The notes under the pieces: model-generated
What the model saw: only the letters and a program-made list of their open reading frames with translations
The model's database searches: none
What the model was told of the DNA's origin: nothing
Program-made: the position numbers and the translations under genes
From: Escherichia coli
Lineage (GTDB): Bacteria; Pseudomonadota; Gammaproteobacteria; Enterobacterales; Enterobacteriaceae
Direction: 5' to 3' (one strand)
DNA: 64,000 nucleotides
Assembly: GCF_044647545.1 (NCBI RefSeq)
Contig: NZ_CP172818.1
Shown here: one piece after another, positions 54,524-63,174 of the stretch
Layout of the letters: each line of letters begins with the position of its first letter
How positions within the stretch are numbered: position 1 is the stretch's first letter

Positions 54524-54808
54524 TTAAACAGGTAAAAAAGAGACCAACCTTAAACCATCCAAATCTACCGGAGTACGCCTGTTTACCCCAAATGTCTGGA
54601 ACTCAAATCCCGATTCCGTATTCGTAGCCCATGCCATCACCACATTGCCTTCTTCCGCCAGTCCAGATATTTGTTCCCAGATCATTTCACGGATTCTTGC
54701 GGATACATCACCTACATACACCCCTGCACGTACCTCCAACAACCAGATGGCTAATCTGCCTCGTAAGCGCGGAGGTACATTTTCAGTGACCACGACCAAC
54801 ATACTCAT
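54524..54808 (-). CDS. cas2: CRISPR adaptation endoribonuclease Cas2
   Basis: ORF 54524..54913 trimmed to [26 protein letters not shown]; 94 aa. Confidence 0.92.
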
Positions 54809-54809
54809 T

Positions 54810-55727
54810 TCAGCTACTCCGATGGCCTGCATCTCCCAGTGAAACAGGAAGCGGAATGGCAACAGGCTGTGCATCTTCAGGTGGGGCCGGCGGTTGTATT
54901 TCTCCAGCAGCAAGCACGTCCTCTATAAGCGGAATCAATTTGGCTAATGTTTTACTACTGCGAAAAATATCCCTGCACGCCAAACGGACTTCCCGGTCCG
55001 GCTCACCAGGATTACGACGCGCTATCTCAAAAGCTTTCGGTACAACAGTGTCAAATTTAATGATGTCCGCGATATCGTAAACAAAGGAAAGAGGCTTTCC
55101 TGTATGCACAAACCCAATAGCTGGTGCATAACCAGCTGCAAGTATCGCCGCTTCAGTTACGCCATATAAACAAGAAGTTGCAGCGCTAATGCATTGGTTG
55201 ACCGTATCGCCCTTTTCCCAGTCTTTCGGATCGTAACGACGTCCATTCCATTTCACCCCGTATTGCTTCGCCAGAAGTACATAGGTTGCTCGCACACGAC
55301 TTCCTTCTATACCTCTGAGTTGCTCTACGGAGCGCCGGGCAGGCGCAGGTTCTCCAAACCGAAGTTCAAACATTTTACGTACGACCTTCAGACGCAAATC
55401 TTCATCCAGAGCAAGTTTTGCCTGATAGAGCAGCTTATCTGAACGCGCACCACCAGGCTGACCAGAAGCATAAACACGAACGCCCGCTTCCCCCACCCAT
55501 ACCAATAATGTTCCAACTTGCGCAGCCAGGCGTACAGCTGCATGCGAAACCCGTGTACCAGGTTCCAACATGATGCAGGCAACCGAGCCAACAGGAATAT
55601 GAGTGCGGATCCCTGTCTTGTCGATAAGTACAAACGCGCCATCTATTACATCGATCTGCCCATATTGCAGAAAGATCATGGAGACGCGATCTTTAAGTGG
55701 AATGGGATTAAGGGGAAGCCAGGTCAT
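54810..55727 (-). CDS. cas1: CRISPR integrase Cas1
   Basis: 305 aa [26 protein letters not shown]; Cas1e. Confidence 0.93.
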
Positions 55728-60093: not shown

Positions 60094-60507
60094 TTGTTCT
60101 CCTTCATATGCTCCGACATTTCTCCTGCATTTCTATACGTCGGCACACTTCCGTTATCGGTAAAAACAAAGAAAAAATACGGCGTAATTAATTCAATAAT
60201 CACATTCACTGCAAAAATATATTCATTGGTTTAATACAATTAACCTATGCATATATTAAGATGTGTTGAATTGTTTAAAGACAATAATGCATGCATTTCA
60301 AATCTGCAAGTTATTCGTTTTATTATCAAAGAAATTTTTAGTTATAATAATTACCATAAATTTTATTACATAAAATATTCATACTGTGAATATAAAATCT
60401 CATACCGGGAAATTAAAAGAAGATGTACATTGTGCACCTTCCCTACTTAAGTAGGGATAAACCGTTATTGGTCTTGTTATCGTCATTGATACCAATCATT
60501 CCCGAAG
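60094..60507. promoter_or_regulatory. AT-rich casA-cas3 intergenic region; expected site of Pcas promoter and H-NS/LeuO control
   Basis: 414 bp, strongly AT-rich, upstream of casA; contains 16-bp perfect palindrome ccctacttaagtaggg at 60441..60456; regulatory roles are from established K-12 literature, not read from sequence. Confidence 0.6.
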
Positions 60508-63174
60508 TTATTTGGGATTTGCAGGGATGACTCTGGTCATCCCTTCATCCCGAGTGTAGGTAATAACAATATTATTACCCTGCCAGATCCATCCATCCTG
60601 ATTCTGTTTCCCTTCCAGCCAAAGTACCCCATCTTCATCTACTACTTCAGAAAAATTACGTTTCCAGGTGAAGGGTACATTGACGCGATTAAGTGCTAAC
60701 GCCTCATACTGCTGTTCATGACTTAGGTCCTCGTAGACCTGGCCATCGAGCAGTTGTTTACCTGAAGACGTTTGTAAATAAGGCAATAATGGCAGGCTCA
60801 TTTCCCCATCCCTCGTTACCGCAAGAATTGTTTCATCGTTATCCTGCAAGCTATATTCTTCAGCCCACTGCAGAACCTTGCGAGCCTTGAACCTCTTTTC
60901 ACACTCAGCACTTTCATACTTATCCATGCCTTTGATGACCCATTCTGGCTCATCCATTTCAGCATCATCGTAAATGCTATCCAGCCATTGCCGGTAGGCA
61001 TCAGGGAAAAATAAGGATGCTCCATTAAGTTCCTCAATATGTTGCTGCGTCCGCCACATGACTCTAACGTTGCTATAAATATGCTCATGTCGTCCGTAAC
61101 CTTCGCCATCAGGCAGCAAAACGCTGGCAAGAGGAACCTCAAAACCAGCGGGACGATATTTGCGATGATGGCGATGTAAACGGCCCAATCGTTGGAAAAG
61201 TAAATCTGCGGGGCAATGCTGAGTAATTAACCAATCAAAATCAACGTCGAGTGATTGTTCCACGACCTGGGTGGCGACAAGTATCCGTCCAACATTTCGC
61301 TTCCCATTTTTGCCGAAATTGCTAATAACTCGATTCTCTTTTTCACGACGATCGTTCAGCGTAAAGCGCGCATGAAACAAATCTATATCTACTTGCGTGT
61401 TATTTAGTTCCTTTAACCGTTGGTGGCATAGTTGTGCAACATCAACCAAATTGCAGATAAGACAGACTTGTGCACCCGCATTTGCCGCTACGATCATTCG
61501 CTCTAACATCCTAAGGTCAGGTAACATGTCAGCTAAATAAATAGGTTCTGGCCGAATCGAAAAGCGGGGCGGGAGTTGTTCTGAATGAGCTAACAGATCA
61601 AAACGTTGTGCACCATTCACACCTCGCCAGTTAATGAGTGGATATGCGGAGTTATTTTCCTCTGGATCTGTATGCAGACCATAAGTATCCAGAAGTTTCT
61701 GTTTTTGTTTCATTGGTAGAGTTGCGGAAAGAAGAATAACACTCCCCCCCACATCAGCCTGAGCCTTGAGCACAGCCTCCAGCAAGCCGTTCATATACGT
61801 GTCGTAAGCATGAACTTCATCAACAATTAAAACACTTCGACCAATTCCCAAACCACGGATAAAGCGGTGTTTAACTGGCAATACCGATATCAACACCTGA
61901 TCAATCGTGCAAACGCCGATTTGCCCAAGAAACACTTTCTTATTGCTTTGTGACAACCACTGACAACACTGAACCCATGCTTCTTCTTGCCCCTGCTCAG
62001 TAAATGCGCGTGATTTTATTGATTGAAAAAGGTGGTTAAAACGTGAATTACCATGAGCAAGAATAAGATTTGGGGAGGTAAATAAACGGCTCGCGTTCGC
62101 TTCCATTCTGCTGAGCATTGCATTTGCAGTAGCTTGTGTAGGGAGGGCAAAAATAACACTATCCGCAAGTTGTTGGTCAATAAGTTTCCAGGCATAGGCC
62201 AGCGCTGTTTCGGTTTTACCTGATCCCGTAGGTGCCTCAATCACCGTCAGCCCGGGAGCTGCAGGAAGAGCATCAACTAACACTTGTAATTGTCTGGGTT
62301 GATAGCCATTGTCCAGTAGAGCATGAACACCTTCATAACATCGCTTATTTGATACAAGGCCGCTCAACTCCAATACCCGGCTCGCATCCTGCTGTCGGTC
62401 CTGGAAATACGTTCTTAGAGCATTTATGTTGGAAGGTGCATCCTCTTTAAACAGAAAGGTATTCGTTGTAGTCCAGGAGCCTAACCAGTCAGCAAGCGAG
62501 CAAAAACCTGCTAACAGTGATGAACAATCAGGTGGTATATCGTTTATAGATAACCCGGCTGGCGTTAAAAATAATGCTTCGAGTACAGATATCCACTCCT
62601 CACGAGCCTGTTTATCTTGCGCAGCATAAGATGCCAGAGAAGCTGGCATTTCCCAACGCGACTTATCTTGATCCTGGGAATGTAATATAAAACCATGATG
62701 TCCTGTAACGGCCTCTACCCATGGAAACCAGGACTCATAAGGATGAGGAGCGGCATCAAAAAAACTGAAAAAATCCCCGGGAGATTGCTCTGAAAGTGAA
62801 TCCTGGTTAAACCAATACAGACCGGCTGCACCATGATTAAATTTACGGCACATTTGTGTTGATGGACCATTAAGTGATGGCGTTGCAGGATTTAATTTCA
62901 GCCAACTTTCTGCTGATTTATATTGGAATCGTATATCAAACTTTCCGATATCATGAAGGGCAATGAAAAATAACAGCCAGGCTTTCACCATCTGTTTTGA
63001 TAGCATTTCATTTTGGCAAAAAGCATTTTGTAGTACGACTGATTGTTCCCACCAGCAATCTGCAACAGCTGCAACATCCAGGCAATGATAAATCAACAGA
63101 TGAATATCATTTCCTTTCGTCAGGCTTTTTGAGGATTTCCCCCAGTAATGACATATATATTTAAAAGGTTCCAT
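60508..63174 (-). CDS. cas3: CRISPR-associated nuclease/helicase Cas3
   Basis: 888 aa ORF with N-terminal HD nuclease motif (ALHDIGKFD) and SF2 helicase Walker A (APTGSGKTE) and DEVH box (LIVDEVHAYD). Confidence 0.95.
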   Translation of the reverse strand: MEPFKYICHYWGKSSKSLTKGNDIHLLIYHCLDVAAVADCWWEQSVVLQNAFCQNEMLSKQMVKAWLLFFIALHDIGKFDIRFQYKSAESWLKLNPATPSLNGPSTQMCRKFNHGAAGLYWFNQDSLSEQSPGDFFSFFDAAPHPYESWFPWVEAVTGHHGFILHSQDQDKSRWEMPASLASYAAQDKQAREEWISVLEALFLTPAGLSINDIPPDCSSLLAGFCSLADWLGSWTTTNTFLFKEDAPSNINALRTYFQDRQQDASRVLELSGLVSNKRCYEGVHALLDNGYQPRQLQVLVDALPAAPGLTVIEAPTGSGKTETALAYAWKLIDQQLADSVIFALPTQATANAMLSRMEANASRLFTSPNLILAHGNSRFNHLFQSIKSRAFTEQGQEEAWVQCCQWLSQSNKKVFLGQIGVCTIDQVLISVLPVKHRFIRGLGIGRSVLIVDEVHAYDTYMNGLLEAVLKAQADVGGSVILLSATLPMKQKQKLLDTYGLHTDPEENNSAYPLINWRGVNGAQRFDLLAHSEQLPPRFSIRPEPIYLADMLPDLRMLERMIVAANAGAQVCLICNLVDVAQLCHQRLKELNNTQVDIDLFHARFTLNDRREKENRVISNFGKNGKRNVGRILVATQVVEQSLDVDFDWLITQHCPADLLFQRLGRLHRHHRKYRPAGFEVPLASVLLPDGEGYGRHEHIYSNVRVMWRTQQHIEELNGASLFFPDAYRQWLDSIYDDAEMDEPEWVIKGMDKYESAECEKRFKARKVLQWAEEYSLQDNDETILAVTRDGEMSLPLLPYLQTSSGKQLLDGQVYEDLSHEQQYEALALNRVNVPFTWKRNFSEVVDEDGVLWLEGKQNQDGWIWQGNNIVITYTRDEGMTRVIPANPK

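Follow-up and report, generated by a model that had tools for sequence, protein, structure and literature searches.

Two questions are raised by the cas genes found between positions 54524 and 63174 of this Escherichia coli DNA (64,000 nucleotides in all, here called the window): whether they belong to a whole CRISPR-Cas system, and whether that system is the one described in K-12. The sequence-only reading had taken them for the complete and intact type I-E operon of K-12. Our own reading, to which we give a probability of roughly 0.93, is that this region and the adjoining array represent the chromosomal type I-E locus of a non-K-12 E. coli, of the K-12 kind and layout and in the same iap-cysH position, and that it should work as that of K-12 does. 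This is an ordinary, standard, already known textbook system of E. coli. Its significance beyond correct annotation is small, and the useful part of the analysis lies in three corrections: the DNA comes from a strain other than K-12, the locus includes the array and its leader, and the genes are predicted to fall into separate transcription units.

Integrity and kinship of the cas genes

As had been claimed, all eight genes are uninterrupted. They are open frames without internal stops on the minus strand, their lengths equal those of K-12 MG1655, and the outer limits of the region are exact, coinciding with the stop of cas2 and the start of cas3:

60508..63174, minus strand: cas3, 888 aa, fused HD nuclease and SF2 helicase (NF007248, 1600 bits; cut-off 569)
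58585..60093, minus strand: casA (cse1/cas8e), 502 aa, large Cascade subunit (NF007247, 902 bits; cut-off 576)
58110..58592, minus strand: casB (cse2/cas11), 160 aa (TIGR02548, 56.7 bits; cut-off 28.5)
57006..58097, minus strand: casC (cas7e), 363 aa, Cascade backbone (TIGR01869, 427 bits)
56329..57003, minus strand: casD (cas5e), 224 aa (TIGR01868, 285 bits)
55743..56342, minus strand: casE (cas6e), 199 aa, pre-crRNA endoribonuclease (TIGR01907, 268 bits)
54810..55727, minus strand: cas1e, 305 aa, integrase (TIGR03638, 378 bits)
54524..54808, minus strand: cas2e, 94 aa (TIGR01873, 141 bits)

When the NCBIfam type I-E models were applied with their curated cut-offs, each of the eight products scored above its own, including the signature subunits Cse1/Cas8e (CasA) and Cse2/Cas11 (CasB). 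The order read from the coordinates, cas3-cse1-cse2-cas7-cas5-cas6e-cas1-cas2, is that of type I-E, and PADLOC names Cas3e, Cas8e, Cas7e, Cas5e, Cas6e and Cas1e at the locus. Cas3 also matches TIGR01596 (HD domain) and TIGR01587 (helicase core). CasA exceeds the cut-off of a second model as well (TIGR02547, 531 bits), is recognized as Cas8e by PADLOC with E = 8e-160, and aligns over its full length with the CasA of solved E. coli Cascade structures (PDB 4QYZ, 4TVX and 5H9F).

With the annotated starts, the short overlaps reported between genes were found at two junctions only, casA/casB (8 nt) and casD/casE (14 nt); the remaining ones are gaps of 1, 2, 12 and 15 nt, apart from the 414 nt that lie between cas3 and casA. 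Mechanical ORF calling extends two of the genes beyond their annotated ATG starts, cas2 to 54913 (TTG) and casD to 57009 (GTG). The casD start is the ATG at 57003, matching K-12 and the PGAP annotation of an identical relative, and cas2 begins with the ATG at 54808, separated by 1 nt from the stop of cas1.

Comparison with the K-12 proteins revealed no inactivating substitution among the catalytic residues checked, every one of which is kept. In Cas3 these are H74 and D75 of the HD motif, K78, S483 and T485, together with the Walker A motif GSGKT at 317-321 (K320) and the DEVH box at 452-455, so that the statement that Cas3 retains its HD, Walker A and DEVH motifs holds. H20 is present in CasE, E141, H208, D218 and D221 in Cas1, and E9 in Cas2. 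The closest solved Cas3 structures, those of Thermobifida fusca and Thermobaculum terrenum (PDB 4QQW and 4Q2C; E = 1e-47 and 7e-68, respectively), show the same HD and SF2 helicase architecture, but they are distant orthologues from other phyla and serve as a structural reference only.

The naming of the locus as the K-12 system was right as to kind and wrong as to strain. The locus shares with that of K-12 MG1655 (b2754-b2761 and CRISPR-1) the position between iap and cysH, the gene order and lengths, the repeat, the leader, the number of repeats (13 in both arrays) and the lengths of the intergenic regions (414 nt for cas3-casA, 361 nt for cas3-cysH). However, the eight cas genes differ from those of K-12 at 185 nucleotides and 62 amino acids, and none of the 12 spacers is in common. 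Protein identity to K-12 ranges from 95.8 to 99.5%: Cas3 (96.0%) and Cas2 (95.8%) are the most diverged, at about 4%, and the others lie between 97.8 and 99.5%. Differences number 36 residues in Cas3, 11 in CasA, 3 in CasC and one in CasE, and the rest of the window departs from K-12 by about 3%. The cas genes, cas1 and cas2 included, show purifying selection, with dN/dS values of 0.06 to 0.21 against K-12 (0.14 for cas3); casB gives no ratio, having two non-synonymous changes (the 2 amino acid differences of its product) and no synonymous one.

Much closer is NZ_AP022098.1 (E. coli WP4-S18-ESBL-09). In a base-by-base alignment its DNA is 100% identical to the window from 54189 to the window end, through all eight cas genes; it carries 12 spacers in the same order, and its PGAP annotation likewise lists the eight cas genes along with a CRISPR. 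The complete genomes of E. coli 4973, EC11 and MS14385 gave the same 99.9% and the same bit score as NZ_AP022098.1. The two sequences part elsewhere: the mutS-rpoS segment of the window holds a ygbI-N set whereas that of NZ_AP022098.1 holds a MarR and hydroxyarylic acid decarboxylase set, and between hycI and ascB the window is without 562 bp that the relative has. At least 80% of the 10.5-kb stretch is held by 1105 of 5426 complete E. coli genomes; the window thus carries an allelic form of the locus found in about a fifth of them.

The array, the leader and the irregular spacers

The description of the locus as complete was correct for the eight genes, but left out the array and leader (53653-54523), which lie outside the limits it gave:

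53653..54418, minus strand: CRISPR array, 13 repeats of the same sequence as in K-12 (consensus GAGTTCCCCGCGCCAGCGGGGATAAACCG), 12 spacers
54419..54523, minus strand: CRISPR leader, separating the first repeat from the end of cas2, identical to that of K-12

An array of 29-nt E. coli-type repeats with spacers of about 32 nt, and with its leader adjoining the cas genes, is what type I-E membership predicts. The Rfam scan of the whole window returned no CRISPR-repeat family at the gathering score. By homology, and following PMC10011333, the leader would hold the promoter Pcrispr1 as well as the signals for IHF and for Cas1-Cas2 integration.

Five spacers (1-3, 5 and 6) have exactly the sequence found in NZ_AP022098.1. 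Private 1-nt indels, absent from NZ_AP022098.1, occur in the remaining seven and in the final two repeats; these seven spacers measure 36, 31, 33, 31, 33, 33 and 32 nt, against 32, 32, 32, 32, 32, 32 and 33 nt in the relatives. It could be argued that these irregularities of the spacers and trailer repeats arose by genuine mutation, and that decay has set in over the older two-thirds of the array but not in the cas genes. The changes are indeed clustered, with 12 one-nucleotide indels and one substitution against the closest genome in 53679-54188 and not a single difference over the next 9.8 kb, and the array indels were found in no complete E. coli genome. Yet an excess of indels over substitutions is unlike natural divergence, and the 36-nt spacer is longer than the 31-34 bp that PMC10011333 reports for spacers of E. 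coli. Moreover, the prophage protospacer described below fits the regular spacer 8 of the relatives and not the version of the window with its extra A. The same window also contains an unmistakable low-quality stretch at 32150-32385, homopolymer-smeared but aligned in register with a gene that relatives carry intact, and an indel-dense one at 36400-38000; the junk string at 32168-32215 has no exact match in the GTDB representative genomes. Real decay of the array therefore appears quite improbable, and the indels are probably errors in the source assembly. Because of these low-quality stretches, neither the odd spacer lengths nor the apparent frameshifts elsewhere in the window should be read as biology. 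If the array indels were real, part of the memory of the array would be damaged. Highly improbable, in our estimate, is a broader proposal, in which the irregular trailer (the 36-nt spacer, the 31- and 33-nt spacers and the two repeats that carry an indel immediately 5' of the hairpin) shows old CRISPR memory being lost in nature through indels, next to cas genes that are perfectly conserved, or, alternatively, the system serves this lineage against lambdoid or P2-like prophages resident in it.

Regulatory DNA and proposed mode of action

The term operon proved too loose for this locus, since cas3 is set apart from casA by a long spacer:

60094..60507, no strand assigned: cas3-casA intergenic region, AT-rich, 414 nt, 32% GC

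A single eight-gene operon is ruled out by this spacer, whose low GC content is also seen in the interval 60000-60499 (0.324). In K-12, Pcas8e is a separate promoter inside the cas3-casA spacer, with further promoters serving cas3 and the array (PMC10011333). The spacer of the window matches that of K-12 at 408 of 414 bases, with no indels; by homology to the promoter and regulator assignments made for the K-12 region (PMC10011333, PMC4782391), it is predicted to carry the Pcas8e (casA) promoter, a divergent anti-Pcas promoter and sites for H-NS, LeuO and CRP. Three transcription units are accordingly envisaged in K-12 fashion: one from Pcas3, one from Pcas8e covering casABCDE-cas1-cas2, and one from Pcrispr1. 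Silencing by H-NS with relief by LeuO has been shown for K-12 only, and the 99% identity of the regulatory DNA suggests that it may operate at this locus too. A simple sigma-70/terminator consensus scan told us little, with 11 sites where chance alone would give 18.5, and was dropped as evidence.

Identity to the K-12 system suggests that the locus would provide crRNA-guided DNA interference and spacer acquisition. The array would be transcribed from the leader and the pre-crRNA cut by CasE within each repeat. The crRNA would then join CasA1-CasB2-CasC6-CasD1-CasE1 to form Cascade, which would find protospacers with an AAG-type PAM and form an R-loop at them. Cas3, with its HD nuclease and helicase, would next be recruited and degrade the target, and new spacers would be inserted at the leader by Cas1-Cas2 with IHF. 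The sequence supports this scheme through the integrity of the genes, their family membership, the kept catalytic residues, purifying selection, an array and leader of canonical form, and spacer matches to prophage or phage genes beside AAG or AGG PAMs.

Matches were obtained for three spacers. Spacer 8, in the regular form of the relatives, matches 31 of 31 bases of a tail-tip J-like prophage gene in another E. coli genome, with an AGG PAM; spacer 2 matches Salmonella phage SI7 at 27 of 32 positions, with AAG immediately before the match; and for spacer 3 the match is to the terminase of phage K139, again at 27 of 32. AAG-type PAMs thus accompany the protospacers, as type I-E membership predicts, in the small sample of two usable cases (spacers 2 and 8). 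Among 50,697 phage and 72,556 plasmid records there was no perfect protospacer, the matches reaching only 27/32 and being to Peduoviridae; the sole exact one, the E. coli prophage gene, turned up when the genome collection was searched. These results could be taken to mean that the locus, though intact, has no antiviral role in nature and is kept for another purpose, for instance to regulate genes or to hold resident or cryptic prophages in check, being permanently silenced for defence. Published work describes the K-12 system as silent at the level of transcription and raises doubts about its biological role (PMC12248084, PMC10011333), and work cited by PMC12248084 finds that E. coli spacers preferentially target prophages. 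We consider this unlikely: all the cas genes are under the purifying selection noted above, the acquisition genes cas1 and cas2 among them, the canonical PAMs beside the protospacers fit ordinary acquisition and interference, and the targeting of prophages is still a defence against mobile elements. A locus that should work as that of K-12 remains the preferred reading, and the sequence offers no argument against it.

Neighbouring elements

The absence of additional cas genes (NCBIfam) and of any other defence system in the window, as previously asserted, was borne out by PADLOC scans of its 63 ORFs of at least 120 aa and then of the 53 non-cas ORFs alone, whose strongest matches were housekeeping look-alikes. 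Traced to their sources, the MzaA match is RpoS and the mad2 match is Pcm, and not MutS and PphB. The BrxP matches are CysD and CysH, WYL/CasR is SrlR and RTasMBL is NorV, all housekeeping proteins, and those to RtcR/PspF are most likely the sigma-54 activators NorR and FhlA. Weak matches to mad1, E1-E2 and JetA3 had E values of 2e-6 to 8e-4.

One small RNA element adjoins the cas system without being part of it:

63254..63410, minus strand: sok-like RNA in the cas3-cysH spacer (Rfam RF01794, 102.6 bits; gathering score 59)

It was the sole Rfam match in the scan of the whole window. A hok/sok type I toxin-antitoxin system was rejected, as the sok RNA stands without a Hok ORF: no Hok-like frame of at least 20 aa occurs in 63175-63560. 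The element lies at the position of the annotated sokX of K-12 and is a remnant like it, in a spacer that is identical to that of K-12 at 348 of 361 bases.

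Cas genes and their relationship to K-12

The window contains a genuine type I-E CRISPR-Cas locus, complete and intact and of a kind well known in E. coli, in a strain other than K-12; this locus is already known. In a profile search all eight Cas proteins exceeded the curated cut-off of the matching type I-E NCBIfam model, and the PADLOC Cas models were concordant with these assignments. The occurrence of the eight-gene set at these positions is far beyond chance. No internal stop was found in any of the eight genes, in line with the uninterrupted ORFs of the sequence-only reading, and all have the lengths of their K-12 MG1655 counterparts. 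Its outer coordinates (54524-63174) were exact, but its internal boundaries for cas2 and casD came from overlong mechanical ORFs (TTG at 54913 and GTG at 57009); the ATG starts at 54808 and 57003, respectively, are those of K-12 and PGAP.

Features of the window (coordinates, strand where assigned, identity)
60508-63174, minus, cas3
58585-60093, minus, casA
58110-58592, minus, casB
57006-58097, minus, casC
56329-57003, minus, casD
55743-56342, minus, casE
54810-55727, minus, cas1
54524-54808, minus, cas2
54419-54523, leader stretch of 105 nt from the cas2 stop to the array, identical to that of K-12
53653-54418, minus, CRISPR array of 13 repeats of GAGTTCCCCGCGCCAGCGGGGATAAACCG (minus-strand reading) and 12 spacers
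63254-63410, minus, sok antitoxin RNA in the cas3-cysH spacer (Rfam RF01794, 102.6 bits), the single element found by Rfam
32150-32385, smeared stretch between fhlA (end 31968) and ygbA (32417-32761)

The Cas3, Cas1, Cas2 and CasE residues compared with K-12 were chosen on the basis of the K-12 mutational literature. Cas3 retains H74/D75 (HD), K78, GSGKT with K320, DEVH at 452-455 and S483/T485, which bears out the HD motif, Walker A and DEVH box recognized from the sequence alone. Cas1 retains E141, H208, D218 and D221, Cas2 retains E9 and CasE retains H20. None of the 62 amino acid differences from K-12 (36 in Cas3, 11 in CasA, 4 in Cas2, 3 each in Cas1 and CasC, 2 each in CasB and CasD and 1 in CasE) falls on an examined residue. 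The dN/dS ratios against K-12 (Nei-Gojobori) are 0.06-0.21 in the seven cas genes with synonymous changes, which indicates purifying selection; casB has no synonymous changes and its ratio is undefined. The solved E. coli Cascade structures 4QYZ, 4TVX and 5H9F gave full-length matches to CasA, and the nearest solved Cas3 structures were 4Q2C and 4QQW.

The earlier identification as the K-12 system is correct as to kind but not as to strain, since the cas coding DNA differs from that of K-12 at 185 positions and none of the 12 spacers is common to both. From K-12, cas3 and cas2 diverge by about 4%, casA and cas1 by about 2% and casB through casE by only 0.4-0.9%, and this unevenness along 54524-63174 suggests a possible recombination mosaic inside the cluster. 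The closest relative was strain WP4-S18-ESBL-09 (NZ_AP022098.1), which is 100% identical to the window from 54189 to 64000 and whose PGAP annotation has the identical eight cas genes and a CRISPR; strains 4973, EC11 and MS14385 scored equally in a search of complete E. coli genomes. At least 80% of the 10.5-kb stretch is present in 1105 of 5426 such genomes.

Transcription units

The short overlaps proposed between neighboring genes exist, with annotated starts, only at casA/casB (8 nt) and casD/casE (14 nt). The remaining neighbors are 12, 2, 15 and 1 nt apart, except for cas3 and casA, between which lie 414 nt with 32% GC, 408 of them as in K-12 and with no indel. K-12 is described as having four independent promoters (Pcas3, Pcas8e, Pcrispr1 and Pcrispr2) and a divergent anti-Pcas; there H-NS silences the promoters and, at Pcas8e, LeuO relieves the silencing and CRP adds to repression (PMC10011333, PMC4782391). 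From this spacer and these promoters, the single eight-gene operon of the sequence-only reading would really be three units: cas3, casABCDE-cas1-cas2 and the array. A simple scan for sigma-70 consensus sites gave 11 against 18.5 expected by chance and so carried no information on promoters. Silencing by H-NS may reasonably be expected in this strain as well.

CRISPR array and sequence quality

The array and leader, omitted in the earlier reading, lie directly downstream of cas2. All 12 spacers recur in NZ_AP022098.1 in identical order; most are also found in many further genomes, and at least one occurs in 230 genomes. The internal repeat at 53899-53927 ends in A, not G (GAGTTCCCCGCGCCAGCGGGGATAAACCA), and is a genuine variant rather than an error because NZ_AP022098.1 has it too. 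Spacer 8, taken in the regular form of the relatives, has a 31/31 match in NZ_AP027258.1, to a prophage tail-tip J-like gene, with AGG immediately before the matching stretch. An AAG likewise immediately precedes the 27/32 match of spacer 2 to Salmonella phage SI7 (Peduoviridae). For spacer 3 the match, also 27/32, is to the terminase gene of phage K139, which is P2-like. No perfect protospacer was found in phage or plasmid collections, which is typical of E. coli arrays, whose spacers mostly lack matches among known phages or plasmids (PMC10011333). A spacer preference for prophages is reported in work cited in PMC12248084.

Measured against its otherwise identical relatives, the window shows 12 one-nucleotide indels and a single substitution, all within 53679-54188. 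Six spacers are thereby 36, 31, 33, 31, 33 and 33 nt long, spacer 12 has 32 nt instead of 33, and two trailer repeats each contain an indel; no other complete genome has these differences. At 32150-32385 homopolymer-smeared sequence (e.g. GGAAAAAAAGGCGCCCCCCCGAAAAAGCCCCCGGGGGG...), absent from GTDB representative genomes, replaces an intact 429-nt TOBE-domain gene of the relatives with the alignment still in register; it has the appearance of a poor-quality read end incorporated into the source assembly and does not look biological. At 36400-38000 ygbI and ygbJ (ltnD) are broken, with ygbK, ygbL, ygbM and ygbN intact downstream. Here, relative to SCU-172 and K-12, about 44 gap columns exceed about 25 mismatches, which points to sequencing error and not to decay into pseudogenes. 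In hypF (minus strand), a private 1-nt deletion at 10743, about 17 nt short of the stop at the 3' end, alters the final codons and lengthens the ORF to 10701; this too is probably an error. Given these stretches, and a 36-nt spacer outside the 31-34 bp reported for E. coli (PMC10011333), the array irregularities are probably assembly errors and quite unlikely to be real. None of the suspected errors affects the cas genes.

Surroundings and other defense systems

The remainder of the window is housekeeping, from mltB via the srl, nor, hyp, hyc and asc genes as far as mutS, rpoS and cysDNC. NZ_AP022098.1 has an extra 562 bp between hycI and ascB, with a small hypothetical and a helix-turn-helix gene, absent from the window at 18031/18032; two mismatches lie directly at this junction. 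Between mutS and rpoS it has a MarR regulator and hydroxyarylic acid decarboxylase BCD genes, whereas the window has K-12-like ygbI-N (36370-42466); both sets occur in SCU-172. Over 31500-43000, complete genomes reached at most 97.6% identity.

When the 53 non-cas ORFs of 120 aa or more were scanned with PADLOC (2023 database), all matches were isolated and either weak or confined to the domain level. Traced to their source ORFs, the MzaA match was RpoS, mad2 was Pcm, the BrxP matches were CysD and CysH, WYL/CasR was SrlR and RTasMBL was NorV; the RtcR/PspF matches, which came from the scan of 63 whole-window ORFs with the cas genes included, were most likely NorR and FhlA, the two sigma-54 activators. 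No Hok-like ORF was found near sok. The earlier statement that no other defense system is present therefore stands, for ORFs of this size against this database. The sok element is a type I toxin-antitoxin remnant, and at the corresponding position in K-12 the sokX remnant is annotated.
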